From assembly GCA_964624765.1 (NCBI GenBank), contig CAZUZO010000002.1, positions 15,495-79,494 of the forward strand: a stretch of 64,000 bases of DNA. The letters are read 5' to 3'. Shown in pieces: positions 4,377 through 55,600 of this stretch. Source of the stretch: an uncultured Thiotrichales bacterium. GTDB lineage: Bacteria > Pseudomonadota > Gammaproteobacteria > HK1. The translations under genes were made by a program, and so were the position numbers. A model generated the notes under the pieces. That model was not told where the DNA came from. It saw only the letters and a list, made by a program, of their open reading frames with translations, and did no database searches. The number at the start of each line of letters is the position of its first letter. Within the stretch, counting starts at the first letter, position 1.

Positions 4377-4760
4377 TTATTCAGCGCTTATGCCAGCGTC
4401 GGTTGCTGCGCAACGATGGTCTCCCTCATCGCCGTGTACGACACAGGGTAGCTTGCCTGTCATCGCGATCTGCACCGGCGACGTGATCTGGCTGCCTTCG
4501 ATGCCGAACACCGTGCCGCCAAGGATCTGCTGGGCCTTGCGCTCGACGATCACTTCCATGGGTCGGCGCGATGAATCCATGCCCAGTCCACGCGCAAAGC
4601 CTTGTACGCTGCTGCGCGACATGGAATTCGCGCCCGCCCCGGCGGATAGGAGAACGCACGTTTTTCACCGCAGCCGACTGTATCGGACGAGGCGTGAGTG
4701 GTCAACCGTGCCGACAGCGATCTACGGTAAATCTGGCGTTGGTCATCGTTTCGGCAGCTG
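4377..4760 (-). pseudogene. remnant of the C-terminal third of a class-I pyridine nucleotide-disulfide oxidoreductase
   Basis: Minus-strand translation in shifting frames gives ARFTVDRCRHG*, LTTHASSDTVGCGE, VLLSAGAGANSMSRSSVQGFARGLGMD, PMEVIVERKAQQILGGTVFGIEGSQITSPVQIAMTGKLP and YTAMRETIVAQQPTLA*ALNN. This follows the order of FAD-site and dimerisation-domain motifs, but is broken by frameshifts, stops and a deletion. The N-terminal two thirds are missing. Confidence 0.45.
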
Positions 4761-4869
4761 GATGACCTTTGCCCTGGGGCCAGCCGAATCCCTTGGCGCA
4801 AGGGATTCGGCTGCCGAAGGCTTGGGGACCGACGGAGTGCTCCAGGGCAACTCTGACGAAATGATGACC
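4741..4869. repeat. type-3 palindromic element (complete copy)
   Basis: Termini GGTCATCGTTTCGGCAG (4741-4757) and CTGACGAAATGATGACC (4853-4869) are inverted repeats (15/17). Inside, GCCCTGG (4771-4777) pairs with CCAGGGC (4842-4848), and there is a perfect 15-bp hairpin CAGCCGAATCCCTTG-GCG-CAAGGGATTCGGCTG (4781-4813). Confidence 0.7.
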
Positions 4870-5269: not shown

Positions 5270-5334
5270 GAAAATTTAGTGCGCCACCGTGTGCCTTGCT
5301 CTGCCGGCGCTCGTGACATCTTTAAAACAGCTTC
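5270..5334 (-). repeat. type-1 element fragment (core arm plus terminus only, reverse orientation)
   Basis: CACCGTGTGCCTTGCTCTGCCGGCGCTCGTGACATCTTTAAAACAGCTTC is the reverse complement of the type-1 left end (GAAGCTGTTTTAAA..GTCACGAGCGCCGGCAGAGCAAGGC). Confidence 0.7.
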
Positions 5335-13029: not shown

Positions 13030-13172
13030 GAAGCTGTTTTAAAAACGTCGCGGGCGCCTCCAGAGCAAGGCGCACGGCGGCTCAGAACCGCAGTGTACGA
13101 CCGAGTACATGAGGATTCTGAGCCGCCGTGCAACGCCGCTCAGACAAGCGCAGTCGTTCTTGAACCAGCTTG
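13030..13172 (+). mobile_element. type-1 inverted-repeat element, short form (143 bp)
   Basis: GAAGCTGTTTTAAAAACG...CCAGCTTG. It contains a perfect 16-bp internal stem (13072-13087 / 13116-13131) and is flanked by TTA (13027-13029) and TTA (13173-13175). Confidence 0.85.
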
Positions 13173-16310: not shown

Positions 16311-16431
16311 GAGGTTGTCAAAAAACCGGCGCGAGCGGGCCGCGGCGACGGAACCTATCAGATAGATAGGCGAGGAGTGAGCACCGCCCAACGCCGCTAT
16401 CGGGTGGTGTAGCAGGTTTCTTCACAACCTC
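16311..16431 (+). mobile_element. type-2 inverted-repeat element (121 bp; core arm on the left, as in type 1)
   Basis: GAGGTTGTCAAAAAACCGGCGCGAGCGG...CCTATCAGATAGATAGG...GCAGGTTTCTTCACAACCTC. TGA lies at 16308-16310 and, offset by 1 nt, at 16433-16435. Confidence 0.85.
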
Positions 16432-22775: not shown

Positions 22776-22925
22776 GAGTTGAGTCTCTCAGAGAACCGTC
22801 GCAAGCGGGCCGAGAGAGCTAGGCGGATGGCGTGAAGCTGGGAGACATAATCAGGTAGATAGGCGAGCCGCCGAGCACCGCACAACACCGCTGCCGCGTT
22901 ACGTAGCGCGTTTTTTCAAAAGCTC
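22776..22925 (+). mobile_element. type-2 inverted-repeat element, left terminus degenerate (150 bp)
   Basis: GAGTTGAGTCTCTCAGAGAACCGTCGCAAGCGGGCCGAGAG...GGTAGATAGGCGAG...GCGTTTTTTCAAAAGCTC aligns along its whole length with the reverse complement of 42074-42214. TGA lies at 22773-22775. Confidence 0.7.
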
Positions 22926-23951: not shown

Positions 23952-24168
23952 GAAGCTGTTCTAAAAATGTCACGAGCGCCGCCAGAGCAAGGCGCACGGC
24001 AGCGAGACAAAATCGTCCGGAACGATTTTGAACAGCCGCAGGCTGGCTCCGAGGGAGCGAGCCTCAGGGATGGGGCGAGTAACGCGGAGTGTACAAAGGA
24101 GTACATGAGCATTTCGAGCTGCCGCGCAACGCAGCTCAGGCAAGCGCAGTAATTTTTAAAACAGCTTC
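23952..24168 (+). mobile_element. type-1 inverted-repeat element, long form (217 bp)
   Basis: GAAGCTGTTCTAAAAATGTCACGAGCGCC...GCAAGCGCAGTAATTTTTAAAACAGCTTC. TGA lies at 23947-23949 (2 nt offset) and at 24169-24171. Confidence 0.9.
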
Positions 24169-25517: not shown

Positions 25518-27413
25518 ATGACTTTTAGCCGAGTGGCTAAGACTGAAGTGAAGGACCGCGATCGCCGGCAACGTTTCGAATGGGTTACGCGGGCGGCGAC
25601 GCGGGCGCTTGCCCAGCGCAAAGATCTCAGCGTTGAGTTCCGGCATGCCCGTGCCACCATCGAGAACAATACGGTGTATTTGCACGCACCCTCCGTACAG
25701 GTGACTCCATCGGACGTCATTCGTCTGCGCGGAGAAGCGGATTCCTTGGCGCTGCAGGTGCGATACCATGATCGCGCTTTGCATGAGGCATTGGCACCGG
25801 GTGAGTCGAGTGCTCGGGAGGTGTTCGATAGCTTGGAGCAAGCTCGCTGTGAGGCCCTGGGGGCGCGGCGAATGGTGGGGGTCGCGGCCAACCTCGAGGC
25901 GTGGCTCGCCGCTCGCTATCGAGACGCGGCCGAGCGCGAGCCCCTGAAGCCAAATGCCTTGCGTTTGCCTGACTCGGTGCAACTCATGGCGCGGGAGGCC
26001 ATGACAGGCAGTCCTCCCCCGGCGCCGGCTGCACGCCTGCTCGATACCCAGCGACGGGAGCTCACACCCAAGATCGGTGGCGCTTTGGTGCGCCTCAGCC
26101 GAAACCTCTCAGACCAACGGCGTTTTGCCGAGATCGTGATGGAAATCTTGGTGGCCCTTGGCTTGGATGTGACGGCGGCATCGGATTCCGTCGAGCGGGA
26201 AGCTCCGGACGAGCCAGAACAGGGAGGAGAGGAATCCGACCCCCAAAGCGCCGAATCCATGGCAAGTGAGGCACAAGGTGGCCCGCCTAAGGCGCTGGAA
26301 GATCAGCATCGGCTTGACTCAACAACGGCTCATGGTATGAGCTCGCACCAGGAGCCTGATGGAATCTCTTCACCGGGGGCGGCGGAGCAGCGTTGGATGC
26401 CGAAGGATACGCCTGCCGGTGTCTGGAGATCGGTGAACTGCAGTGCATCGTCCAGCTACCGTGCCTACATGACGGATTTTGACGAGGTGGTCCATGCACA
26501 ACAGCTTTGCACCCAGGAGGAGCTGGCCCGCTTTCGTTCGCATCTGGATCGGCAGGTCCGCGATTTTGATGCCATGATAGGACGATTGGCCAACCGCCTG
26601 CAGAGGCGGCTGCTGGCCAAACAGCTGCGCGGCTGGCAGTTTGATAGGGAGGACGGTTTCCTCGATACGACCCGCTTGGCGCGTCTGGTGGCGAATCCCC
26701 TAAATCCCGTTGCCTACAGGTGGGAACAAGAAACAGCGTTTCAAGATACCGTTGTGAGCTTGCTCATCGATAACTCCGGCTCGATGCGTGGACGGCCGAT
26801 CACCGTTGCCGCCATCAGCGCCGATGTGCTCGCGCGAACCTTGGAGCGATGCGGGGTCAAGACCGAAATCCTGGGTTTTACCACGCGGGCTTGGAAGGGA
26901 GGGCAAGTGCGTGAGCGCTGGATCGAGGGCGGCAAGCCAGCGAATCCAGGTCGATTAAACGATCTACGACATATCATCTATAAGTCGGCTGATATGCCTT
27001 GGCGGCAAGCCCGAAGCAATCTCGGGCTGATGCTGCGGGAGGGGCTCCTGAAGGAGAACATCGATGGTGAGGCACTGACATGGGCCTATCAGCGGTTGCT
27101 CAGGCGTCCTGAAGAGCGACGTATCCTGATGGTTATCAGCGATGGAACGCCAGTGGACGATTCCACTCTGTCAGCAAACGGTGCCGGGTACCTGGAGCGG
27201 CATCTGCGGGAGGTCATCGCGCACATCGAGAATACCCGCTCGGTCGAATTGCTGGCCATTGGGATAGGTCATGATGTGACCCGCTACTACCGTCGTGCCG
27301 TGATGCTGGCGGATGCCGAGCAGTTGGGGGGCGTCATGCTGCAAGAGCTTGCCGGCTTGTTTGATAGTGAGTTAACTCACCCGCGACACCGGTGGCGTCA
27401 CCCTCTCCGTTGA
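25518..27413 (+). CDS. cobT: CobT-type protein with C-terminal vWA domain (cobaltochelatase subunit CobT family)
   Basis: Track ORF starts at TTG 25449, but ATG 25518 preceded by GGGGG is preferred. CobT N-domain ([16 protein letters not shown]...[18 protein letters not shown]), acidic linker, and vWA ([14 protein letters not shown]). Confidence 0.8.
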
Positions 27414-27420
27414 CCCCTGA

Positions 27421-27637
27421 GAAGCTGTTTTAAAAATGTTACGAGCGCCGGCAGAGCAAGGCGCACGGTGGCGACAAAATCGTCGGGAACGATTTTGAAC
27501 AGCTGGAAGCTGGCCCCGAAGGGGCGCGCCCCAAGGATGGGGCGAGTAACAACCGGAGTGTACAAGGGCGTACATGAGGATTGCGGGCCGCCGTGCAACG
27601 CAGCTCAGGCAAGCGCAGTAATTTTTAAAACAGCTGC
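27421..27637 (+). mobile_element. type-1 inverted-repeat element, long form (217 bp)
   Basis: Starts 8 nt after the cobT stop. Flanked by TGA (27418-27420) and TGA (27638-27640). Confidence 0.9.
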
Positions 27638-27831
27638 TGAAAGGTCTTGAAAACCGGCTATGATCGCCGTCTCGGCACCCTGAATCGACCTGTCTCTCGG
27701 ACATGGTAGCCAACCCGGCGGCGCACGGGATGTCTGGTGGGCACGGGCCGTCGGCTTGAGCCCGGTATTCCTGCCGGACACACCCCGCGGCTCCCATGGC
27801 TTGGCGCCGCTTCGCCGTTTGGCGGGAACCC

Positions 27832-27876: not shown

Positions 27877-28017
27877 GAGGTTGTGAAAAAACCTGCTACA
27901 CGACCCGATAGCGGCGTTGGGAGGTGCTCGCTCCTCGCCTATGCATCTGATAGGTCTCTCGGCTTCGCGCCGTCCGCCTGGCTCTCGGGCCGTTCGCGAC
28001 GGTCTTTCTACAACCTG
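27877..28017 (-). mobile_element. type-2 inverted-repeat element (141 bp; orientation opposite to the type-1 core arm)
   Basis: GAGGTTGTGAAAAAACCTGCTACACGACCCGATAGCGGCGTTGGG...CGTTCGCGACGGTCTTTCTACAACCTG. Flanked by TCA (27874-27876) and TCA (28018-28020). It ends 5 nt before the ABC ATPase ATG. Confidence 0.9.
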
Positions 28018-29746: not shown

Positions 29747-29807
29747 CATTCCTACGGCGTCCCTTGCGGCCTCGGGTCGGCGGCCCCCAGGGGCAAAGAT
29801 CATCAAA

Positions 29808-29857
29808 CTGCCGAAACGATGGCCCCTGCCCGACGTAGCCTAACGATGACCATAGCC
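29808..29857 (+). repeat. type-3 motif, two tandem partial copies
   Basis: CTGCCGAAACGATGGCCCCTGCC followed by CCTAACGATGACCATAGCC. Confidence 0.5.
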
Positions 29858-30602: not shown

Positions 30603-30836
30603 ATGGCTATTCGGGTCCGTTACTTTGCTAGCTTGAGGGAGCGCATGGGGCGAGCCGAGGATCGCCTGGACGTGGGACGGATCACCACGGTGGAGGACGT
30701 CTGGCGCAAAGTTTCGGGTGAAAGGGCTTTGCCGGCGAACACGCTCATGGCGATCAATATGCAATATGCAGACAGCACTCAGCGGGTCTGCGACGGAGAC
30801 GAAGTGGCCTTTTTTCCGCCGGTGACGGGGGGCTGA
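30603..30836 (+). CDS. moaD: MoaD/ThiS-family sulfur carrier (molybdopterin synthase small subunit-like)
   Basis: MAIRVRYFASLRERMG...DGDEVAFFPPVTGG ends in the diagnostic GG. The track ORF start at 30573 overlaps the HAD gene, so ATG 30603 is preferred. No moaE is adjacent. Confidence 0.8.
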   Translation: MAIRVRYFASLRERMGRAEDRLDVGRITTVEDVWRKVSGERALPANTLMAINMQYADSTQRVCDGDEVAFFPPVTGG

Positions 30837-30966
30837 GAGGTTGTGAAAAAACCGTAGCGAGCGGCCCGAGAGCAAGGCGGAACGCTGTTCAAAATCGTGC
30901 CAGACGATTTTGTCGCCGCCGTGCGCCTTGCTCTGCCGGCGCGCGCGACAGTTTTACAACAGCTTG
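30837..30966. mobile_element. hybrid type-2/type-1 element, near-perfect 130-bp palindrome
   Basis: Left half has the type-2 terminus and core arm (GAGGTTGTGAAAAAACCGTAGCGAGCGGCCCGAGAGCAAGGCGG). The centre is a CAAAATCGT-GCCAG-ACGATTTTG hairpin. The right half is the reverse complement of the type-1 left end (GCGCCTTGCTCTGCCGGCGCGCGCGACAGTTTTACAACAGCTTG). It fills exactly the gap between the moaD stop (30834-30836) and the kinase stop (30967-30969). Confidence 0.85.
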
Positions 30967-32262
30967 TTAGGGGTGATTGGTGACGAGCCGGCCGGTTGTT
31001 GAGCCTAGACGATCGATTAGGATGGCCACAAAGGCTTGATAGAAGCGGTGCTGACAATGCGCTGAGGTGGCATTGAGGAGCCCTGTGTTGACCCGCAGCG
31101 CTGAGACGCGGGTTTGCGCGATCACGTTAGCACTGCGCTTTCGTTTACCTAACGCGCCCATTTCGCCGAAGCAATCCCCAACACTCAGGGTCGCGATGGT
31201 AGCCTCGCCTCGTCGCACGAGGACGCTTCCGGAGGCAATGATAAAGAAGTCTGCGGCAGTCTCCCCTTCTAGGAGGATGTTCACCCCCGCCGCGAATTCC
31301 TGCCAGGTGCTGGCATGGATTACCTCGGCTATCTCAGAGCGCGAGAAATCCGTAAAGAAACGAAGTTTCGCGATGCGCTCGAAGGAGGTCTGGTCGGTTA
31401 GCTTTTTGCTCCGGCGCCGAGAGCTGTCTAACACGAGGCTGAGATCTCCGGCCAAATCCATACCAGTCTTGTAGCGGTCTTGTGGATGCTTTTGCAGTGC
31501 TCGATGCAGGATTCGTCCTACCAGGGGCGAGACATCGGGCCTTAGAGCTTTGACCGATTGGGGGTGCTCGTGAAGGATGCGATGCGCGATGGAGGCCAGG
31601 GTATGGCTGGCGAAAGGATGCTGGCCCGTGAGTAGCTCGTACATGACGACGCCGAGGGAGAAGAGGTCGGTTTGCGGGTTGACGATCTCCTCGCGTACCT
31701 GTTCTGGTGACATATATAGTGGAGAGCCGACATAGCCCAAGAACTGGGTGTTGGTGACATCGAGCTGAGAGGCGATGGCGATGCCAAAATCCCCGATTTT
31801 GACGTCTTGGGATTCGGTCAGCAGAATATTTCTCGGCTTGATGTCGCGGTGAACGACTCCATTTCGGTGGGCGTAGTCCAGTGCCACGGCGCAGTTTCGG
31901 ACGGCGTTGATGACGTCTCTAATGGGCAGCAGGCTAGCGGGTTGACAGTGCGCTTGCAGCGTACGCCCCCCTGGAATGTATTCCATGACAAGGTAGTAGA
32001 GGTCGTCGACGATGCCTGCGTCATAGACGGAAACGATGTTGGGGTGTTGCAGTATCTTGGCGATCTTGGCCTCATTGAAGAAAAGCTTACGGTAGCGTTC
32101 GCCCTCCTCAGCGTGATGCAGGACTTCCGGATGGGCCACCTTGATCGCGACCTCCTGATGGGTTAAGGGATCGTGGCCGAGGTATACGCTACCCATATTC
32201 CCGCGCCCGATTGGTTTGACGATAAAGTACTGCCCAAGGGTGCGGTTTTCTAAGCCTTCCAT
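30967..32262 (-). CDS. Ser/Thr protein kinase with C-terminal cyclic-nucleotide-binding domain
   Basis: Kinase motifs GRGNMGSVY, AIKV, HRDIKPRNIL, DFG and SPEQ. The C-terminal CAP_ED-like domain contains GDCFGEMGAL. The track ORF starts at TTG 32406, but ATG 32262 (MEGLENRTLGQY) is preferred. Confidence 0.85.
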   Translation of the reverse strand: MEGLENRTLGQYFIVKPIGRGNMGSVYLGHDPLTHQEVAIKVAHPEVLHHAEEGERYRKLFFNEAKIAKILQHPNIVSVYDAGIVDDLYYLVMEYIPGGRTLQAHCQPASLLPIRDVINAVRNCAVALDYAHRNGVVHRDIKPRNILLTESQDVKIGDFGIAIASQLDVTNTQFLGYVGSPLYMSPEQVREEIVNPQTDLFSLGVVMYELLTGQHPFASHTLASIAHRILHEHPQSVKALRPDVSPLVGRILHRALQKHPQDRYKTGMDLAGDLSLVLDSSRRRSKKLTDQTSFERIAKLRFFTDFSRSEIAEVIHASTWQEFAAGVNILLEGETAADFFIIASGSVLVRRGEATIATLSVGDCFGEMGALGKRKRSANVIAQTRVSALRVNTGLLNATSAHCQHRFYQAFVAILIDRLGSTTGRLVTNHP

Positions 32263-35772: not shown

Positions 35773-36429
35773 ATGGCTGCGCGCCCTGACGCTTTACTGC
35801 TCGTCGCCCCCGGCTGCGTATATTGCCCGATTGTGCTTCAGTCTCTCGCCGATGCCATCAAGGCCGGTCGCCTCGCTCGGTTAGAGGTGGTCAACACGGT
35901 GGAATATCCGGAGGTGGCGAAGGCGGTCGGGACCCGCACTGTCCCCTGGTTACGGATTGGCCCCTTTGAGCTCGATGGCAACTACACGCCGGGCGAACTG
36001 GCAGAGTGGATCGAACACGCTGCTCAGGGTACCGGCTGGGAGCAGTATTTCAGCTCGCTACTGGCCCAGGGTAGACTGCTGCAGGCGCTGAAGCGGGTGC
36101 AAGAGGATCCCGCGCGCCTGGCGCAGGTCATCGCTCTGGCGGGCTCACTGGACACTCCGATGGCGGTGCGTGTCGGGGTCAGTGCCGTACTGGAAGAGTT
36201 GGCAGGCAGTACCGCGCTGCGTCGCCACATACCGGAGCTGGTGGCACTCACCCGATCGCCAGAGCCGCAGGTTCGCGCCGATGCCTGTCATTACTTGGCG
36301 CTGACGAACACTTGCAAGGCGGCCGAGCACGTGCGGCCGCTACTGGATGACGGGGACGCTTCCGTGCGCGAGATTGCTCAGGAGACACTCGACTGGTTGG
36401 CCGCGAAGCCTCACCAGGAGCTGTCTTGA
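35773..36429 (+). CDS. thioredoxin-fold protein with C-terminal HEAT-like repeats
   Basis: N-terminal CxxC (APGCVYCPIV) in a glutaredoxin/thioredoxin-like fold. The helical repeat C-half includes PQVRADACHYLA and ASVREIAQETL. Starts 8 nt after the previous gene. Confidence 0.7.
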   Translation: MAARPDALLLVAPGCVYCPIVLQSLADAIKAGRLARLEVVNTVEYPEVAKAVGTRTVPWLRIGPFELDGNYTPGELAEWIEHAAQGTGWEQYFSSLLAQGRLLQALKRVQEDPARLAQVIALAGSLDTPMAVRVGVSAVLEELAGSTALRRHIPELVALTRSPEPQVRADACHYLALTNTCKAAEHVRPLLDDGDASVREIAQETLDWLAAKPHQELS

Positions 36430-36496
36430 GAACCACGGCCCTTGCCTGAGCTGCGATTGCAAGGCGGTATGCCATCCCTCGCCTTGCTGAGTCTAC
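36430..36496 (-). repeat. mini / heavily deleted type-1-like element between convergent stop codons
   Basis: CCCTTGCCTGAGCTGCGATTGCAAGGCGG...CGCCTTGCTGAG contains the reverse complement of the type-1 right arm (CTTGCCTGAGCTGCG.TTGC) and of the core arm (CGCCTTGCT). It is bounded by TGA 36427-36429 and CTA 36497-36499. Confidence 0.5.
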
Positions 36497-42073: not shown

Positions 42074-42214
42074 GAGCTTGTGAAAAAACCTGCTACACAG
42101 CCCGATAGCGGCGTTGGGCGGTGCTCGCTCCTCGCCTATCTATTTGATATGTCTCGTCGCTGCGCGCCGTCCGCCTTGCTTTCGTGCCGCTCGCGACGGT
42201 TTTTTCACAAGCTC
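42074..42214 (-). mobile_element. type-2 inverted-repeat element (141 bp, perfect 17-bp termini)
   Basis: GAGCTTGTGAAAAAACC...GGTTTTTTCACAAGCTC. Flanked by TGA 42071-42073 (the stop codon of the M16 gene) and TGA 42215-42217. Confidence 0.9.
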
Positions 42215-45403: not shown

Positions 45404-45970
45404 ATGACGCTGGTGCGCACATCTTTCCACACTCAAACGTTCTGGCTAGGAGCGTTGGTGGCCGTGTCCCTTTTTCTCGGGGGATGCGCAACTCGAGTTC
45501 CTGCTCCACTGCGTGATATCCCCTCCCCGGAAGTGAGTGTAGCCCAGGTAAGGCAAGATACTGAGAAATTTATCGGCACACGCGTTCGATGGGGGGGCAG
45601 TATAGCAGTCGTCGAAAACCGTTCCTCGGAAACGCTAATAGAGATCGTTTCTCAGCCGCTGGATCGCGATGGCCGGCCACAGCTTACTCGCGCGACGGGT
45701 GGTCGGTTCCTTGCCGAGTTCCCGGACTTCCTCGATCCCTTGATCTATGGGGAGAGGCGTCAGCTCACTGTCGTGGGCACTCTTCGGGGGGAAGTGACGC
45801 GAAGGATCGGTGACTATGAGTACGCCTTTCCGGTCGTGGCAGTCGAATCCCATTACCTTTGGGAACGGGTGACTTACCCCTCCCCAGCCCCCATTGACTG
45901 GTGGCGATACGATTGCTGGCCGTATCCCTACTCTCGATATGCTTGGCCCTTTGGCCCCTATTGCTGGTAG
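45404..45970 (+). CDS. slp: Slp family outer-membrane lipoprotein
   Basis: Lipobox LGGC. VRWGGSI...ETLIEIVSQPLDRDGRP...GRFLA...YEYAFPVV follows the Slp pattern. Confidence 0.8.
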   Translation: MTLVRTSFHTQTFWLGALVAVSLFLGGCATRVPAPLRDIPSPEVSVAQVRQDTEKFIGTRVRWGGSIAVVENRSSETLIEIVSQPLDRDGRPQLTRATGGRFLAEFPDFLDPLIYGERRQLTVVGTLRGEVTRRIGDYEYAFPVVAVESHYLWERVTYPSPAPIDWWRYDCWPYPYSRYAWPFGPYCW

Positions 45971-46094
45971 CTGTACAAGGCCAGAGCGACCGTTTTAGAC
46001 CCTTCCCTCCACTCAATCTCGCACCCTGGGGTTGCATGCCGTGATGGTAGGACTCTAATCACCCGCCGCACAAGCTCCAACACAAAAGGCGTAC

Positions 46095-46310
46095 GAAGCT
46101 GTTTTAAAAATGTCACGAGCGCCGGCAGAGCAAGGCGCACAGCGGCGACAAAATCGTCTGGAACGATTTTGAACAGCTGCAAGCTGGCCCCGAAGGGGCG
46201 AGCCCCAAGGATGGGGCGAGTCACCACCGGAGTGTACAAGGGAGTACAGAGGATGGCGAGCCGCTGCGCAACGCAGCTGAGGCAAGCGCAGTAGTTTTTA
46301 AAACAGCTTC
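46095..46310 (+). mobile_element. type-1 inverted-repeat element, long form (216 bp)
   Basis: Full architecture. Flanks are TAC (46092-46094) and TAA (46311-46313). It ends 24 nt before the transporter ATG. Confidence 0.9.
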
Positions 46311-46334
46311 TAAGGTACGGCCAGCGGAGGCGGT

Positions 46335-47582
46335 ATGCTGTTACAGGGGCTTCTCGGATTGATTGTCATCATCGGTACCGCTTGGCTGATGAGCGAGGAT
46401 CGTCGTGCGATACCGTGGAGACCCGTTCTCGGGGGGCTCGTGCTGCAGTTCGCTCTAGCGACGCTGCTCCTTAAAGCGCCGTTATTCTACGCGGTTTTTT
46501 CCCAGCTTCATGACATCCTGTTGTCTTTGATTGAGGCCACTCGTGCCGGAACGAGCTTTGTTTTCGGATTTCTGGGGGGTGGACCGTTCCCTTTCGAGGC
46601 GACCCATCCCAGCGCAAGCTTTGTGCTGGCCTTTCAGGCCTTGCCGCTTATTCTAGTCATGAGCGCGCTTTCGGCATTGCTTTTCTATTGGCGCATATTG
46701 CCGTTGGTCGTCAGGGGGTTTGCATTACTGCTGCAGAAGACCCTTGGTATCAGCGGTGCAACCGGCCTCAGTGCGGCAGCCAATGTGTTGCTCGGTATGG
46801 TGGAAGCTCCGCTGCTAGTGCGTCCTTATCTCGAGCGACTGACGCGCGGGGAGCTATTCATGTTGATGAGCTGCGGTATGGCGACCATCGCTGGCACGGT
46901 CATGGTGCTTTATGCCAGTATCCTGGTGGAGGTCATCCCTGGGGCTATGGGGCACCTGCTCAGCGCATCAGTGATCAGTGCGCCCGGCGCGATCGTTATC
47001 GCTGCGTTGATGGTCCCGCCGGGTACCGAGGATCCGAACGGCAACCCCGTCACCATCGAACTGCCGGCCAGCAGCAGCATGGATGCCATCACGCTTGGCA
47101 CCCTGCAAGGGATCAATCTGGTTCTCAATGTTGCCGCCATGCTGATCGTCTTGATAGCCTTGGTGAGTCTTGCGAATCAATCCTTGGCGTTGCTTCCGCC
47201 CATCGGTGATGCACCGATTACCCTGCAGCGCATTCTAGGTTGGGCGATGGCACCTTTGGCTTGGCTGTTGGGTATTCCATGGCTGGAGGCGGCGACAGCA
47301 GGCTCTCTGATGGGAACCAAGCTGGTCCTCAACGAACTGATCGCCTATATCGAGCTCGCGCAACTCTCGCAGGAAGCACTGAGTGATCGAAGCCGCCTCA
47401 TCATGGTCTATGCGATGTGTGGGTTCGCTAATCTCGGTAGCCTGGGGATTCTTATCGGTGGCCTTGGCTCGATGATTCCAGCTAGGCGAAAGGAGATCGT
47501 GAGTTTAGGCCTAAAGGCTGTCCTCGCAGGGACCCTGGCCACTGGCTTGACAGCGCTGATAGTTGGCCTCTATCACCTTTGA
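46335..47582 (+). CDS. NupC/NupG-family (CNT) nucleoside transporter
   Basis: 415 aa, polytopic. GGAGG precedes the ATG. The N- and C-terminal CNT domain pattern includes SFVFGFLGG and LNELIAYIEL. Confidence 0.85.
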   Translation: MLLQGLLGLIVIIGTAWLMSEDRRAIPWRPVLGGLVLQFALATLLLKAPLFYAVFSQLHDILLSLIEATRAGTSFVFGFLGGGPFPFEATHPSASFVLAFQALPLILVMSALSALLFYWRILPLVVRGFALLLQKTLGISGATGLSAAANVLLGMVEAPLLVRPYLERLTRGELFMLMSCGMATIAGTVMVLYASILVEVIPGAMGHLLSASVISAPGAIVIAALMVPPGTEDPNGNPVTIELPASSSMDAITLGTLQGINLVLNVAAMLIVLIALVSLANQSLALLPPIGDAPITLQRILGWAMAPLAWLLGIPWLEAATAGSLMGTKLVLNELIAYIELAQLSQEALSDRSRLIMVYAMCGFANLGSLGILIGGLGSMIPARRKEIVSLGLKAVLAGTLATGLTALIVGLYHL

Positions 47583-47725
47583 GAAGCTGTTTTAAAAATG
47601 TCACGAGCGCCGCCAGAGCAAGGCGCACGGCAGCGAGAAAGCGGAGTGTACAAAGGAGTACATGAGCATTTCGAGCTGCCGCGCAACGCAGCTCAGGCAA
47701 GCGCAGTCATTTTTAAAACAGCTTC
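47583..47725 (+). mobile_element. type-1 inverted-repeat element, short form (143 bp, perfect 18-bp termini)
   Basis: Begins immediately after the stop codon TGA 47580-47582. TGA is repeated at 47726-47728. Outside the 74-nt length difference it differs from 23952-24168 by only 2 substitutions. Confidence 0.9.
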
Positions 47726-47822
47726 TGAGGGCTCTATCAGGAACGGCTGGACGGAGGTAATGAGGTCGCAAGGCGAAACGGCGTTGATTTGGGCAGGCAT
47801 GTTGACCGAAGATTCGGAGTAA

Positions 47823-48284
47823 ATGGCCACTATGTTGATGCAAGGAGCGCTAAGAGTGCCCCTCTTAGGGATTGGCTGGGGGTTAGTCGTACTCGCCTCT
47901 ATTCTAAGCTGCAGCGGCCTGACGCAGAAAGAGCGTTATGTCAAACTCCAGCGCAGTGTCGAGAGTTATGCGAGTGACATCCGTTGGAACCGCCTTGATG
48001 CGGCACTGAATTACATCGCAAGAAAGGATCCGGGGGCTTCCCCGGTGGACCCGGCGCGTCTTGAAGGATTTCGTATCACGGGGTATGAGCTGGGGGCGGG
48101 TCGGCTGGCGGAGGATAGCAAGGAAGCGTCAGTCGTCGTCACCTTTACTTATTACGATACGGACTCGGGGCGATTGCGGAACCTATCCGACCTCCAACAC
48201 TGGTGGTTCAACGATTCGCTGGGACGTTGGTTCCTGGACGGCGATCTCCCGAATTTTGTTCGAGAGGGGCATGAATCGAACTAG
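47823..48284 (+). CDS. hypothetical lipoprotein
   Basis: Signal peptide with lipobox (LASILSC). No family recognised. Several possible starts lie between 47823 and 47856. Confidence 0.6.
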   Translation: MATMLMQGALRVPLLGIGWGLVVLASILSCSGLTQKERYVKLQRSVESYASDIRWNRLDAALNYIARKDPGASPVDPARLEGFRITGYELGAGRLAEDSKEASVVVTFTYYDTDSGRLRNLSDLQHWWFNDSLGRWFLDGDLPNFVREGHESN

Positions 48285-48372
48285 ATCCCCCGGCCGTCGT
48301 CATTATGAGGAGTCATGATTCGGTTTTCCTCGCCTTCATTCTCGGAGCGGGCGAGGATCGGCCCCTTACATT

Positions 48373-48399
48373 AAGCGCAGTCGTTTTTAGAACAGCTCC
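48373..48399 (+). repeat. type-1 right-end fragment
   Basis: AAGCGCAGTCGTTTTTAGAACAGCTCC followed by TGA. Confidence 0.45.
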
Positions 48400-48489
48400 T
48401 GAGCGCCGCCCGCGCGCTCCGAAAGAGCATCCCTGTCGCCACGATGCCCATGGCTGCTGAGATCATAGCGTTGAGGCCTTTTGGTAAGT

Positions 48490-50076
48490 ATGCAGTCCAA
48501 TTCGATTTCTGATGAACTCGCCCGGCGGCGCACGTTCGCGATCATTTCTCATCCAGACGCTGGCAAAACGACTCTGACGGAGAAGCTGCTCCTGTTAGGC
48601 GGAGCCATTCAGCTTGCTGGTACCGTGAAAGGCCGCAAGGCAGCACGGTATGCCACCTCGGACTGGATGGCCTTGGAGAAGCAGCGGGGCATCTCGGTCA
48701 CCTCTTCGGTGATGCAGTTCGAGTATCAAGGTCGGATCATCAATCTTCTCGACACCCCCGGCCACGAGGATTTTTCTGAAGATACCTATCGGACACTCAC
48801 CGCCGTCGATGGCGCACTCATGGTGATCGATAGCGCGAAAGGGGTTGAGGAAAGAACCATCAAACTCATGGAAGTGTGTCGGCTTCGAACGACGCCGATC
48901 ATGACCTTCGTTAACAAGCTCGATCGGGAGGGTCGCGAACCGATTGAGATCATGGATGAGGTCGAACGAATTCTCGCTATTCATTGTGCCCCGGTGACTT
49001 GGCCGATCGGTCGCGGTACACATTTTCGTGGAGTGTATCATCTGTTAGACGATCGGGTGCGCCTGTTTCTGCCCGAGAAGGGTCAACGTCGCCGTGAGAG
49101 TCGAGTGATTGTTGGGCTGCACAATCGATTGCTCGATGAGGTACTGGGCGATCAGGTAGCCGAAATTCGAGATGAAATTGAGTTGGTTCGAGGGGCTGGG
49201 CGCGCCTTCGATCCCAAGGAATACCTGGCCGGCCTGCAGACGCCTGTTTTCTTCGGCTCTGCCTTAAGTCATTTCGGCGTCCAAGAACTCCTTGAAAGCT
49301 TCGTGAAATACGCGCCGTCCCCCCAGCCGCGAGAAGCGAGAGAGCGTCAGGTACTGGCCAGTGAGGAGAGTTTTACGGGTTTCGTATTTAAGATTCAGGC
49401 CAATATGGATCCGCAGCACCGCGACCGGGTAGCCTTCGTGCGTGTGACGTCCGGCTGCTATCGGCAAGGAATGCGACTGCATCATGTCCGCGTTGGACGG
49501 GATATCCAAGTGGGGGCTGCGCTCACCTTTATGGCGAGTGAGCGGGAACGGGTGGGAGAAGCCTACCCGGGTGATATCATTGGGTTGCACAATCACGGGA
49601 CCATAAAGATCGGGGATACCTTTACCCAGGGCGAACAGCTGAACTTTATCGGTATCCCGAATTTTGCGCCTGAGCTTTTCGTTCGTGTCGTGCTGCGGGA
49701 TCCCCTACGAATGAAGGCGTTGCAAAAGGGCGTGAGTCAGCTCAGTGAGGAGGGAGCGACGCAGGTTTTCCGTCCGCTTATGAGCAATGACATCATTTTG
49801 GGTGCGGTCGGAACGCTGCAGTTTGATGTGGTGGCTTTTCGACTCAAGCACGAATACGGTGTCGAATGCACGTATGCGCCAGTCAATCTCTACTCTGTTC
49901 GCTGGATTGAGGCCAAGGACCTGAAGAAGTTGGAGGATTTTCGTGACCGCAATGCGGCGAGACTGGCCTTGGATGGAGGCGGCAACCTGGCCTACTTAGC
50001 GCCTAATCGGGTTAACCTGGATCTCGCTATTGAGCGCTGGCCCGACATCGCCTTTCTGGCAAGCAGAGAACACTGA
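48490..50076 (+). CDS. prfC: peptide chain release factor 3
   Basis: [39 protein letters not shown] 48490 is preferred over the track TTG 48481. Confidence 0.95.
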
Positions 50077-50094
50077 GCGGCGCGCAGCCGTCCG

Positions 50095-50850
50095 TGGCGC
50101 ATGAGCTTGTTGTTAGCACTGGCCCTCCTGCACGTCGCTCTTGCGGCCCGGTACATACCTCACCTGCCGCGCATCCACAACCTAGACTTCCAGGCCCCGT
50201 GGCTCCAGCACTTCATAGACCGGGATCCCATACACCGCCGGTGGATTCCAGCGCCACCCCTCGACCCCGCAGGCCAACCGCCGGTCGGCCATTGCACTGC
50301 GATCGTTGGTCATCGTCCCGAACCCCCGCCCCGGATCGTCCGTGACGTGCCGTCCGACCGCTACCCAGTGGCCCGATGCCCCTACATCTTGGCGCGTTTC
50401 GCCTGGGCGAACAGCAGCTTGTCCAAGGGTTGGGCCAGCACCTCCTTGAACAGGAACACCAGCGCGTTCAACGCCAGGTTCTGGGTGCTGGCCCGCGACC
50501 TTGCTCTCCACGGCGAGATGGTCCAAGAACCGCTCGATAGCGGCCGGTGACACGTCCTGCACCTGCTGCTCGTGACAGAACCGCAGAAAGCGCCGGCACC
50601 AGTCCCCATACGAGCGTTCCGTGCGAATCGAGTACTGCCGGGCGCGGAGCGTGCGCACCAGGGTCGCAAGGAGTACATCGGTGTCCGCGGAAGCCGGGAC
50701 CGCGCGGCCCGAGGTCCTGCCGCCTCACCCGCCAACGGAAGGTCCCGGGCAAGCGTCGGATGCTCGGGTGGCCGCCCGCGGCTCCCTTCCTTCCACCAAG
50801 CCCAATCGACCCGCGCGGCTGCCGGCACGTCCGCAAGCTCCTTTTTCATA
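50095..50850 (-). pseudogene. decayed, 3'-truncated tyrosine recombinase (integron-integrase / XerD-like N-terminal half)
   Basis: Two minus-strand frames carry, in order: RARQYSIRTERSYGDWCRRFLRFCHEQQVQDVSPAAIERFLDHLAVE, then (frameshift) ASTQNLALNALVFLFKEVLAQPL..AKRAK, then EVLEPRGLEV*VVDARQVRYVPGRKSDV (compare LRV.D.D....I.VR.GKG.KDR). There is an in-frame stop, and the catalytic C-terminal half is absent. Confidence 0.6.
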
Positions 50851-51056
50851 TCCGATATCTATCTATCTATGTTGGAAGAAGTCGCTTCAGCGGACGGCTA
50901 ACCGCCGCCGCTGAGCTTTGGCGTTATCGCGCCGGGACAAGCTCGGCGTATCTTACGGGGTGAGAGTCCCCGTTGGGAAAGGGTTAGCGGCTCCCCATAT
51001 CGAGTGTTGGACCTGTGGCGGAGCACCCAAGTGGTAAGGAGGACTGCGAGAGGAGC

Positions 51057-51265
51057 GAACAAAACAGGTTAAGCGTACACAGAGAATCCTGTAGCGCGTA
51101 GCGGCGACAAAAGCGTCAACGACTTTGAACAGCGTTAAGCTGGCCCCGAAGGGGCGAGCCCCAGGGATGGGGCGAGTAACCCCCGGAGTGTACAAGGCAG
51201 TACAAGTATGGCGAGCCGCTGCGCAACGCAGCTCAGGCAAGCGCAGTCGTTATTAAAACAGCTTC
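51057..51265 (+). mobile_element. type-1 inverted-repeat element, long form with scrambled left end
   Basis: From GCGGCGACAAAAGCGTCAACGACTTTGAACAGC onward it aligns with the other long copies. The right end is ...GCAAGCGCAGTCGTTATTAAAACAGCTTC followed by TGA. Confidence 0.8.
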
Positions 51266-51345
51266 TGAGTCAAGCCGAAACAGATGTCGTCACAGCGTGC
51301 CTTGCGTCAAAGGGCAGGCTGCAGTCCCATAAGAAAAGCTGAGAA

Positions 51346-51368
51346 GTGCCGAAACGGTGACCATCGTC
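51346..51368 (+). repeat. type-3 motif, solo copy
   Basis: GTGCCGAAACGGTGACCATCGTC. Confidence 0.5.
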
Positions 51369-51391
51369 TATGACTTTTGGGGAGATTTGCC

Positions 51392-52012
51392 GTGTCGAGT
51401 TTCAAACAGAAGGCGCGAATACTCACGAATGGACTCGTGGCAAGTTGTCTATTCGGCGCGACTATGGTGACTGGGGATATGGGCTTCCAAGAGGTTTATG
51501 CTGCGCCACCGCCTTGGGCTCCCGCCCACGGTTATCGACACAAGCACGGTGCTGGGCATCATTACGTTGCACATCCGCAGCCCGTTTACCATCATGCCGA
51601 TGTCGGCATCCCGTATGGCACCTGTCATCGCCATGCGGTGGGGGCTATCCTCGGCGGCGTTGTCGGCGGTGTGGCGGGTGCCCAGGTGGGAAGGGGAGAC
51701 GGCAAGACTGCTGCGACCATTGCGGGAACACTGCTTGGCGTACTGATCGGCAGTCATGTTGGCCGCACCATGGATCAAGCCGATCGCTACTGCACGGCGC
51801 AGGTGCTGGAGCAAGCCGCCGATCGTCAATCCATCGTGTGGCACAATCCAGAAGCGCAGGCGGAGTACCGCGTTACGCCGGTGACAAGCTATACCCAGCA
51901 GGGGCAATACTGTCGGGAGTATCTAACGGAAGCTGAGGTTGGGGGTGTTCCCCAGCAGGTGTATGGGACGGCTTGCCGTAGCCCCGATGGCGCCTGGCAG
52001 ATCGTGAATTAG
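51392..52012 (+). CDS. glycine-zipper surface-antigen-like protein (17-kDa antigen / COG4520-like)
   Basis: GGGGAG lies 7 nt before GTG 51392. Signal peptide, His-rich segment, glycine zipper AVGAILGGVVGGVAGAQVG...IAGTLLGVLIG, and C-terminal YCREY...G.ACR.PDG.W motif. Confidence 0.75.
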   Translation: MSSFKQKARILTNGLVASCLFGATMVTGDMGFQEVYAAPPPWAPAHGYRHKHGAGHHYVAHPQPVYHHADVGIPYGTCHRHAVGAILGGVVGGVAGAQVGRGDGKTAATIAGTLLGVLIGSHVGRTMDQADRYCTAQVLEQAADRQSIVWHNPEAQAEYRVTPVTSYTQQGQYCREYLTEAEVGGVPQQVYGTACRSPDGAWQIVN

Positions 52013-52343
52013 GGCGGCTACTCGACTCACCGCTCGGTGTTGCAGCACGTATCGTGGGCCTGCCGAGACGATGCCCGGGCGCCAACACTCCATAGGAACC
52101 CACCTTAAATCTATCCTACGACACAGTCCTTTGCTTCACCCAAGTCGCTGCAGGAGTTCGCGAGAACTCCCCGGCGGCTTCCCCGGCATACCTCCTTTTG
52201 CACTGCGGAAAGTCAGCAAATTGTGAACACGTTCGGGTCGGGGAGACCTTCGATCTGGCAACCCCTCCTACGCGCGGGGGTGAGGTGACATTTTATGCTT
52301 GATTCCGCGCCGAAGCCGTTCTCCGCGAAGCGGTTCCGTCCAA

Positions 52344-52557
52344 CAAGCTGTTTTAAGAGTGTCGCGAGTACTGGCAGAGCAAGGCGCACGACGGCGACAA
52401 AATCGTCTAGAAGGATATTGAACCGCTGGAAGCTGGCCCCGAATGGGCGAGCTCCAAGGATGGGGCGAGCAACTACCGCAGTGCACAAACGGGTACAGGA
52501 TTATGAGCCGCGGCGCACCGCCGCTCAGGCAAGCGCAGCAATTTTTAAGACAGCTGC
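52344..52557 (+). mobile_element. type-1 inverted-repeat element, long form, most divergent copy (214 bp)
   Basis: CAAGCTGTTTTAAGAGTGTCGCGAGTACTGGCAGAGCAAGGCGCAC...GCAAGCGCAGCAATTTTTAAGACAGCTGC, followed by TAA. Confidence 0.85.
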
Positions 52558-52578
52558 TAAACGATGGCCATGGCCGCC
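52557..52578 (+). repeat. type-3 motif directly abutting the type-1 right end
   Basis: CTAAACGATGGCCATGGCCGCC. Confidence 0.5.
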
Positions 52579-52635
52579 TGCGTTAGTTAGGCCTATTATC
52601 TGCCTCGGAGTGAACCCAAGCCGCTGTTTACCGTC

Positions 52636-55600
52636 TTGAAAATAGGGATCTCTGTAGCGGGAAGCAAAACACTCGGACCCATACCGTCTCATTGGCCTAG
52701 ACTGAGCGAGCCCATGCCAGCTGGACCTCTAGCACAGAGTCGCTTGCAAATCAGCGAATCGGCCTGCCGGTGGACGGTGCGGGCCATGTCTATCCTGCGC
52801 CGGCATCTCGGTGTAAATGTGCGGTTGCACCACCGGGAAGGCCAGCTGGAAACGGGCCAAATCTTCCTTTTCAATCATTTTGCTCGCTTCGAAACGTTCA
52901 TTCCTCAGTACCTGATCTACCAGCAGACCGGTGCCTACTCGCGCTCTATTGCCGCTGCTGAGCTGTTCGCAGCCGATGCCGCGTTCGCCAATTACCTCAT
53001 GAAGGTCGGAGCGGTGCCCAACAACCATCCTCGGTTGTTGCCTTTCTTAGCCGAGGAGATCTTGCGCGGCCGTAAGGTGATCGTGTTTCCGGAAGGTGGA
53101 CTGGTCAAGGATCGCCGGGTATTGGATCGCCGCGGACGCTATAGCATCTACTCCAATTCGGCGGCGAAACGGCGCAAGCATCACGCCGGTGCCGCGGTTC
53201 TGGCCCTGGTGCTGGATGCCTTGAAGAGCGCATTGCAGGCCTTCTACGTCGCCGGTGATACCCGCACGCTGCAGCATTGGATGCAACAGCTCGGGTTCGG
53301 AAGCGTCGAGACCCTGCTGGCAGCCGTGCAGCGCCCCACGCTGATCGTTCCGGCCAATATCACCTTCTATCCACTGCGGGCCGGCGATAATGCCTTGCGC
53401 AGGGGGTTTGAGCTGCTGAAGAAGGGCCTCAGTGAATCCTTCTCGGAAGAGCTACGCATCGAGGGGAACATTCTGCTCGAGCGCACCGACATGGATGTGC
53501 GGATCGGTGATCCGGTCTCACCAAAGGTATTGTGGCATGATTGGGAGCGCAGGCTTGCAGCGCGTGTGGTGCGCCACAGTGATTCCCTGGATGCCCTGTT
53601 TGTCTCGCACACCCAACGGAATCGGTGGGACGATGGCCTATTTGCCCGCCAAGTCCGGCGATACTCGCGTGAGCTGAGGGATCAATGCATGCGCCAGATG
53701 TATACCGGTGTCACCGTGAATTTGAGCCACCTCGCGTCGCGGCTCATTCTCGCTTTGCTTGAGCAAGGCACGACAGAAGTACCCAAGGCTTTGTTTCACA
53801 AGAGCCTTTATCTTGCGATCAAGAACGTCCAGCCGGAGCCCTCGCTCCATCTTCACGATAGTCTTATGCAGGCTGAGACGGCTGGGCAGGTGATGGCCGG
53901 TACCTGCACCGATTGGGTCGAGTTCTTGAGCTGGGCCGTGGCAGCGGAGCTGGTGCAGGTGGATCCCGAGCACTATCGTTTCCTACCCAAGTTAACGCAA
54001 GAGCAGGCATTTCATCGCGTACGGCTGGAAAACCCGATCGCCGTCTACGCCAACGAGTTGGCGCCGGCCTCGGCCGCCGTGAGCGCGGTCGACCGAGCGC
54101 TACGCGCGGCGAGCAAACTGGATGAGCGGTCATTCGCAAAGTTGATGTTCGCAGACGAGTGCGCGACCTACGCCGATGATAAGCAGACTTTTTCCCAGCC
54201 GCACCACCAAGAGATCAACCAACAGCAGACGGCGACAGAATCCGGCGCCCCCTACCTGCTCCTTCCGAAGCGGCGCGGTGTGGTGGGTGTGGTTCTCATC
54301 CACGGCTTGCTGGCTTCCCCGGCGGAGTTACGTGCACTGGCAGAGAAGCTCCATGCGGCGGGTTATCCTATCATGGGGGTGCGCCTCAGGGGACACGGCA
54401 CTTCGCCCTGGGACCTCAACACCCGTCGTTGGCAGGATTGGTTGGATTCGGTGCACCGTGGCTACCAGATCGTTTCCGCTCTGGCAGACAGGGTCTGCCT
54501 GCTTGGGTTTTCGGTCGGCGCCGATCTGGCTCTCCGCTACGCGGCGCAACAACCGCCGAGGCTGGCCGGTGTGGCCGCGGTCTGTCCACCCCTGAAGTTC
54601 CGCAACCGCAACATGATGCTCGTGCCGCTGGTACATGGGGCCAATCAACTGATTCGCTGGAGTTCGGTGGGTGACGGACCGATGCCTTTTAGCGTGAATG
54701 TCTCGGAGCATCCGCACATCAATTATCGCCACATCCCCATTCGCGCGCTGCGCCAAGTGTCGCGCTTGGTGGGCGAGATCAAGCGCCACCTGCCGCAGGT
54801 GCACTGTCCGGTGCTGATTCTGCAGGCGAGTGACGATCCCGTGGTGGAGCCGAGCGGTGCGTTGCTGATCCATGAGCAGCTCGGTTCGTCGCTGAAGATG
54901 CTATACAGCGTGCCTGCAGACCGGCACGGTATTCTCCATGAGGTGACGCAGGGTACTTATGAGCGCCTTCAGGGATTTCTCGATTCGCTCACCAACCCCA
55001 GCATACGGCACAAGATCGGGCGTTCCCCCTGGTGGGGAAGTAAGCATCGGTGGCTTCGCGGTTATCCCCACGGCATCGACTGGGATGCAGCTATTCCTGC
55101 GAAACCGCTGGGTTTGATCTTTGAAGAGGCGGTTGCGCGGTTCGCCTCCCGTCCCTGCATCGATTTCCTCGGGAAGCGCTTTACCTACGCGCAGATCCAA
55201 ACCCTCGTCGACCGGGCGGCTAACGGTTTGCTGGCGTTGGGGGTTTGCCGCGGCACCAAAGTCGGGCTCTGTCTCCCCAACACCCCTTATTTCGTCATCT
55301 GCTATTACGCCGTGCTCAAGGTTGGCGGCACCGTGGTTAACTATGACCCCTTGTCTGTGGCGCGTGAACTGGCGTATCAGGTAGAGGATTCTCACACCGA
55401 CATCATCGTGACGGTCGATCTGCGCCAGGTGTATCCTAAGATCGCCGCGCTCATTGGCCGCACCCGGCTTCGGGCTGTGATCGTCTGTCGAGTCGGTGAT
55501 GTCTTGCCAGCGGTGCAGGGGGTACTGTTCGCTGCGCTTAAGCGCAGCGAACTGGCCTCGATTCCCACCGATCCGGAGCACATCCCCTTTTCCGACCTGG

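Follow-up and report, generated by a model that had tools for sequence, protein, structure and literature searches.

A family of structured intergenic repeats in an uncultured gammaproteobacterium, very probably MITEs of the IS5-type group

The window, i.e., the whole stretch of 64,000 nucleotides analysed here, is chromosomal, has a G+C content of about 60% and encodes phosphoribulokinase, CobS/CobT, a NupC-type transporter, RF3 and enzymes of fatty-acid oxidation. Acidiferrobacterales MAGs contain the closest named relatives of this transporter (65-67% identity). The focal element is localized at positions 27421-27637, on the + strand, just after cobT: its left target-site duplication, TGA (27418-27420), lies 4 nt past the cobT stop codon (27411-27413), and the right one, also TGA, follows the element directly (27638-27640). 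Between these duplications come, in order, the left terminal inverted repeat GAAGCTGTTTTAAAAAT (27421-27437), identical to the termini of two IS5-family insertion sequences (loci L083 and L137); a left arm (27438-27473), which pairs with the right arm in the fold; an internal module of ~75 nt restricted to the long form (27474-27550); a conserved central hairpin TGTAC-N6-GTACA with flanking GAGGAT (27551-27580); a right arm including GCAACGCAGCTCAGGCAAGCGCAG (27581-27620); and the right terminal inverted repeat ATTTTTAAAACAGCTGC (27621-27637). The limits of the hairpin and of the right arm are taken from the alignment and the consensus fold. The module itself consists of three or four small hairpins, i.e., ACAAAATCGTC..GACGATTTTG, CAGCT..AGCTG and GCCCC..GGGGC (two times).

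This is the general order of the type-1 elements, read from the outside in: a 17-bp terminus, an arm of ~35 nt, the central hairpin, the arm complementary to the first and the other terminus; in the long form, the module of ~75 nt is added between left arm and central hairpin. The sequence-only reading, from which this work started, had described the termini as perfect inverted repeats of 17-18 bp. Inverted repeats of 17 bp are indeed present in every complete copy and perfect in some copies, but other copies have 1-3 mismatches.

Type-1 elements measure 143 or 214-217 bp, and the 64 kb contain seven copies plus fragments. The seven near-full copies that had been announced, all on the + strand, were recovered by full-length alignment and by nhmmer (E from 1e-73 to 1e-11). 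Besides the focal element, flanked by TGA/TGA, the long copies are found at 23952-24168 (+), between the phosphoribulokinase gene and cobS; at 46095-46310 (+), between slp and the nucleoside transporter gene; and at 52344-52557 (+), this last one being the most diverged of the long copies. A further long copy (51099-51265, +) lacks the left terminus and most of the left arm. The two short copies, both of 143 bp, are at 13030-13172 (+), between divergently oriented genes, and at 47583-47725 (+), whose left TGA duplication doubles as the stop of the nucleoside transporter gene. A profile built from the seven copies also recovered the two fragments already noted, i.e., 5271-5334 (-), reduced to the left end and left arm, and the right-end fragment 48373-48399 (+) upstream of prfC, matched over 48373-48397. 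The same profile added two partial copies, at 30861-30966 (-) and at 36417-36477 (-), the latter being a right-arm fragment between convergent genes.

It must be noticed that three ORFs of 90-140 codons, at 27372-27797 (-), 52295-52639 (+) and 45958-46239 (-), cross repeats and are almost certainly spurious. They create a false « protein » similarity between repeat copies.

The truncated long copy had been described as a copy with a scrambled left end, starting at 51057. The copy is present, but its homology to the others begins only at about 51099. The 136 nt on its left (50963-51098) match the 5' part of RF02005 (group II intron D1-D4, class 6) with 40.5 bits and E = 4e-9, the gathering score being 49. 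Only one type-1 copy has such a neighbour. Neither a D5/D6 match nor a reverse transcriptase was found near 50963-51098, and the two upstream ORFs gave no Pfam hit. A group II intron origin of the whole element was considered and rejected: the fragment accompanies a single copy and is not part of the sequence that the copies share.

Expressed as gaps between genes, repeats of some kind had been counted in about 15 of the 22 gaps longer than 65 bp. The 15 repeat-holding gaps are found again, but gaps longer than 65 bp number about 34, not 22, on a crude gene map. One more GC-rich palindromic repeat (…CAGCCGAATCCCTTGGCGCAAGGGATTCGGCTG…), found at 4741-4813 and at 29760-29824, has no relation to the type-1 model and probably corresponds to what had been called « type 3 ».

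On either strand, the whole element folds as one long imperfect hairpin, with z values of -8 to -10 relative to dinucleotide shuffles. In the alignment of the short forms, 95.7% of the cells are paired and 11 of the 43 pairs are changed on both sides; the observed covariation values were reached by none of 500 shuffles, and pairing drops to 34-48% in slid controls. Compensatory variants of the central hairpin are found in other metagenomic lineages which contain diverged type-1 homologues: TGGAC..GTCCA at L086, a diverged homologue with a compensated central hairpin, and TTTAC..GTAAA at L140, a locus of 44% G+C in which the arms are almost fully replaced while their complementarity is retained. 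A third homologue, L095, is a long form in a locus of 41% G+C. The interior hairpin is thus kept through sequence change by compensatory substitutions, and this covariation suggests that the interior is not neutral. A 26-nt motif of the right arm matches only one of 185,579 species representatives, a Gammaproteobacteria MAG, in which it occurs 22 times.

The relation between both forms can be seen from two copies of the window. Compared with the long copy at 23952, the short copy at 47583 shows 97-98% identity in each arm; one form has therefore been converted to the other recently. The 143-bp form is the 216-bp form minus the ~75-nt module. On both sides of the module there are short GGCGA repeats, and most likely the module was lost by slippage between them.

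A covariance model of 14 short forms extends the family to the type-2 elements. They are localized at 42074-42214 (-; terminus GAGCTTGTGAAAAAACC, flanks TGA/TGA, 50 bits), 27877-28017 (-; flanks TCA/TCA, 42 bits) and 16311-16431 (+; 31 bits), with a degenerate relative at 22781-22925 (+; 15 bits, E = 0.11). Because the model detects them at 31-50 bits, type-2 elements are regarded as diverged type-1 relatives with a variant terminus. An intermediate terminus, GAGCGTGTTTTAAAACC, is found at L170, a locus of a relative with 75% identity. A hybrid palindromic element, to which no strand is assigned, combines a type-2 left end with an inverted type-1 left arm (30837-30966). It fills the gap 30834-30969, from the TGA stop of an ORF to the TTA (complement of TAA) of a convergent Ser/Thr kinase gene; this intergenic space is entirely transposon-derived.

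Among 17 complete type-1 copies (window and one related genome), 12 are bounded by identical TNA flanks, and the pairs observed are TCA/TCA, TTA/TTA, TAA/TAA and TGA/TGA. The duplication is not perfect everywhere: 3 of the 5 complete window copies scored for flanks have no perfect one. When all elements bounded by a type-1 terminus are considered (n = 55; window, related MAG and metagenomes), TNA stands on both sides of 41, and in 34 the two flanks are identical, i.e., much more than the ~10 expected by chance among the 41. Moreover, C precedes TNA directly (position -4) in 54% of the flanks, which leads to C-TNA-G as the target.

Metagenomes were then scanned with TNA plus terminus. Full insertion sequences of about 0.9 kb share the type-1 termini. 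The one at L083 (~0.9 kb) has the same 17-bp termini and a 267-aa ORF with DUF4096 and DDE_Tnp_1 domains, scoring 223 bits on NF033580, the NCBIfam model of IS5-family transposases. The same termini accompany an IS5-family transposase at L083, L115, L137 and others, all from other metagenomes, and nine more loci contain complete or partial related transposases (41-60% identity) adjoining the same terminus. A further motif, TCACG, is common to several transposase loci and to the left end of the MITE. Three of the complete or near-complete insertion sequences have no matching flanks, possibly because their short contigs are chimeric. In the same scan, these termini and TNA flanks also turned up around dozens of unrelated cores of MITE size; one IS5-type terminus is thus common to many unrelated MITE cores in environmental bacteria. 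Three metagenomic elements (L054, 1653-1814; L067, 795-955; L127, 5684-5846) have the same termini plus an additional internal terminus, and appear to be nested or tandem MITEs from another family of the same terminus group.

The absence of a transposase gene from the window, already reported by the sequence-only reading, holds: tblastn with the transposase of the cognate insertion sequence finds none there. No parent insertion sequence was found in the window or in the loci of the MAG, either by tblastn or as terminus pairs at the spacing of an insertion sequence. A literature search with the terminus sequence returned no papers.

The type-1 repeats have terminal inverted repeats and a fixed 3-bp duplication, they are small, non-coding and multicopy, and insertion sequences with matching termini exist. 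Because of the TNA duplications and of the full insertion sequences with the same ends, they are placed among the MITEs of the IS5-type group, and very probably an IS5-family DDE transposase acting in trans has spread them. These data support an IS5-type transposase as the agent of their movement. The idea of a MITE-like family of structured inverted repeats is accordingly supported by termini, TNA duplication and insertion sequence partners, and its uncatalogued status by Rfam, where nothing reaches the gathering threshold for the window and 20 loci of the related MAG.

The repeats could be explained in other terms, i.e., as REP/REPIN palindromes moved by a RAYT tyrosine transposase, as a small-RNA gene family or as group II intron debris. 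They are hairpin-forming and intergenic, one copy adjoins the group-II-intron-like fragment, and there is a sub-threshold match to an sRNA family. Against this, 17-bp inverted termini, a 3-bp direct duplication and matching insertion sequences with a DDE transposase are not features of REP/REPIN, which are palindromes of 20-40 bp without target duplication and linked to RAYT, whereas type-1 elements measure 143-217 bp and have a TNA duplication. The intron-like stretch concerns a single copy, outside the shared sequence, and no Rfam family is reached at gathering score. This group of explanations is thus so improbable that it can practically be set aside.

With the repeats taken as IS5-type MITEs, the transposase would recognise the 17-bp termini GAAGCTGTTTTAAAAAT and insertion would take place at C-TNA-G sites, the central TNA being duplicated. 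Several copies lie exactly on stop codons because TGA and TAA fit this target; the duplication regenerates the stop. The hairpin may be important for the success of the element, or may act as an RNA hairpin on mRNA 3' ends once co-transcribed. Copies decay by truncation and by deletion of the palindrome, as is seen by comparison with relatives.

At the site of the 47583 copy, an ortholog of 96% identity (L169) has a 20-nt palindrome made of two termini, directly after the stop codon, and 78 nt of flank are also missing there. The copy at 46095 is shared with L169, at least for its right arm, the contig of L169 beginning inside the element; at the same site the 75% relative (L170) has retained a degenerate right end. 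In the region upstream of prfC a complete copy of 143 bp is found in L170, and the window and L169 have a right end of 27 nt in the corresponding region. No clean empty site was found in the comparisons with L169 and L170, nor any synteny between the window and the related MAG loci. From the comparisons with L169 and L170 it follows that copies persist for a long time at shared sites and decay by deletion.

Contigs from MAG GCA_050330075.1 and from a stromatolite metagenome are almost identical to the window, and the short-read contigs of both stop inside repeats: type-1 repeats break the short-read assemblies of these organisms. The stromatolite contig, for instance, ends inside the 23952 element. 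One contig of GCA_050330075.1 (L022, 2985-3110) follows the window at 99.9% identity until the first bases of the 23952 copy; where the window then has the element and cobS, this contig has unrelated sequence and a gene for malate/lactate dehydrogenase. This divergence is either a rearrangement between strains at the MITE or an assembly join.

The orientation of the copies had been said to be the same throughout. This is correct for type 1 in the window, but type-2 copies are present on both strands and the copies of the related MAG and of the metagenomes have mixed orientations relative to genes. A general orientation bias was rejected once these MAG and metagenome copies were included.

The resemblance of the right end to an intrinsic terminator did not survive. 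With a terminator defined as a short GC-rich stem with a loop of 3-8 nt and a T-run directly after, four right ends of elements lie within 45900-52700, and none of them is called by a scan of that stretch. The motif concerned, CTGCGC-N16-GCGCAG, has a loop of 16 nt, is not conserved across copies, and its bases pair with the left arm in the consensus fold.

These results bear on a quite different explanation, in which the elements are kept mainly as RNA-level devices, i.e., hairpins stabilising 3'-UTRs, targets of RNase III or RNase E, or bidirectional terminators, the transposon features being historical. Every type-1 copy of the window is co-oriented with its upstream gene, the hairpin is kept via compensatory changes, and the arms are flanked by an A-tract, a GC-rich stem and a U-tract; moreover, RNase E reportedly mediates the action of ERIC (PMC3184786, citing De Gregorio 2005). 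There are 39 G-U cells vs. 10 A-C cells on the + strand of the element; this is a weak hint at RNA-level constraint, and the excess is largely inherited from the consensus. On the other side, gene orientation is mixed in the related MAG and metagenomes and type 2 occurs on both strands, shared-site copies decay to fragments, the terminator scan calls none of the element ends and one copy lies between divergent genes. The elements are therefore rather unlikely to be kept mainly as RNA-level devices, and the preferred reading is still that of IS5-type MITEs. By analogy with ERIC (PMC3184786), the elements may plausibly have a secondary RNA-level role, which would fit the co-orientation in the window. 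RNA hairpin effects on mRNA 3' ends are reported for ERIC and Correia elements.

The module of the long form leads to ERIC in another way. In E. coli and Klebsiella, the long copies of ERIC contain an insertion of ~70 bp, and the module is homologous to it, with a BLAST E value of 1e-4 against 7.3 Gb and nhmmer E values of 2e-9 to 4e-8. The ERIC insert is at the same position, i.e., at the junction of left arm and central hairpin, and in the same orientation as the type-1 module. Long ERIC copies with the ~70-nt insertion are found in E. coli O157:H7 downstream of panC (L171, 560-760) and in Klebsiella between rlmN and ndk (L025, 2990-3165); these two loci are bona fide ERIC copies carrying the known insertion. 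At one locus, the ~70-nt insertion is present in 616 of 5426 E. coli genomes.

It could thus be asked if the ERIC (IRU) family simply includes the type-1 elements. The two share a layout of left arm, optional module of ~70-75 nt, central hairpin and right arm, and genuine ERIC copies have the homologous module at the same place and in the same orientation. When the arms are aligned globally to the published ERIC consensus (PMC2759123), z is 3.2, in the matching orientation alone, and 10 of 1000 shuffles score as well. Nevertheless, the ERIC arms in L025 are detected neither by the type-1 covariance model nor by the HMM, ERIC has a TA duplication (PMC3184786) vs. TNA in type 1, the ERIC termini are unlike those of type 1 and the host is not an enterobacterium. 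Membership is rejected because the arms are undetected and the duplication is TA rather than TNA, and is regarded as improbable. The sequence-only reading, in which the consensus was not recognised as ERIC, was thus right as to membership, but a partial relationship is real: the insert of the long form is homologous to the insertion of long ERIC copies.

Rfam contains a further relative of the module. The module and the start of the central hairpin align with the full 101-position model of RF02902 (AaHKsRNA22), with the same layout of four hairpins and scores of 29, 34 and 30.5 bits, below the gathering score of 39.8. Rfam lists this family (Aggregatibacter sRNA 22) as an sRNA rather than as a component of a repeat.

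A Mu-like prophage (L026, 3001-3080; L150-L168) also has a copy of the module, placed between its genes for the small (DUF3486) and the large terminase. The prophage stretch is found in 515 of 5426 complete E. coli genomes, and a scan of viral contigs for the module gave 19 loci with essentially the same flanks, corresponding to the E. coli Mu-like prophage junction of L026. In the prophage, the module begins at a TGA stop and ends in GGAGGA just before a TTG, the annotated ATG of the large terminase being inside; the module may supply the ribosome-binding site of the large terminase gene.

A tentative proposal, possible rather than probable, is that the four-hairpin module of ~75 nt, perhaps even the whole layout, might be an ancient structured unit shared across Gammaproteobacteria and re-fitted with different termini. 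Its presence in ERIC (Enterobacterales), in AaHKsRNA22 (Pasteurellaceae), in the Mu-like prophage and in the present MITE would then have one origin, and different termini would have let unrelated transposases (TA vs. TNA duplication) move the same core. If so, the core would not be mere filler but would be functional in itself, for instance as RNA domain or protein-binding site. The link between module and ERIC offers in any case a way to ask for the role of the long-known, unexplained ERIC insertion.

Type 1 adds to the poorly known uncultured Gammaproteobacteria a well-documented MITE family, with its termini, its target, the type of its autonomous partner and its decay products. PIF/Tourist elements and IS5 subgroups typically have a 3-bp TNA duplication within a longer palindromic target, and the likeness to the eukaryotic Tourist/PIF-Harbinger MITEs is by analogy. 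Correia elements have a TA duplication and 26-bp termini of different sequence, as compared with type 1 by inspection only. Correia/NEMIS elements of Neisseria are similar to type 1 in size range, long inverted ends, hairpin fold and localization near gene ends (PMC3184786). ERIC/IRU (127-bp consensus) is also an imperfect palindromic intergenic MITE, often found by stop codons and occurring in a short and a long form. Bacterial MITEs derived from IS5 elements form a recognised class (PMC3184786), e.g., BrickBuilt of Porphyromonas gingivalis and ATR/ISNme1 of Neisseria, which are likewise short and non-coding and have termini matching those of IS5-family insertion sequences (PMC4596501). Even the flavour of the termini is alike: GAGACCTTTGCAAAA for ISNme1 vs. 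GAAGCTGTTTTAAAAAT and GAGGTTGTGAAAAAACC in the window elements (PMC4596501). Type 1 differs from BrickBuilt and ATR by its host clade, i.e., uncultured Gammaproteobacteria with Acidiferrobacterales MAGs as nearest named relatives, by its core sequence, and by an interior that is, as a whole, a covarying hairpin with an optional structured module.
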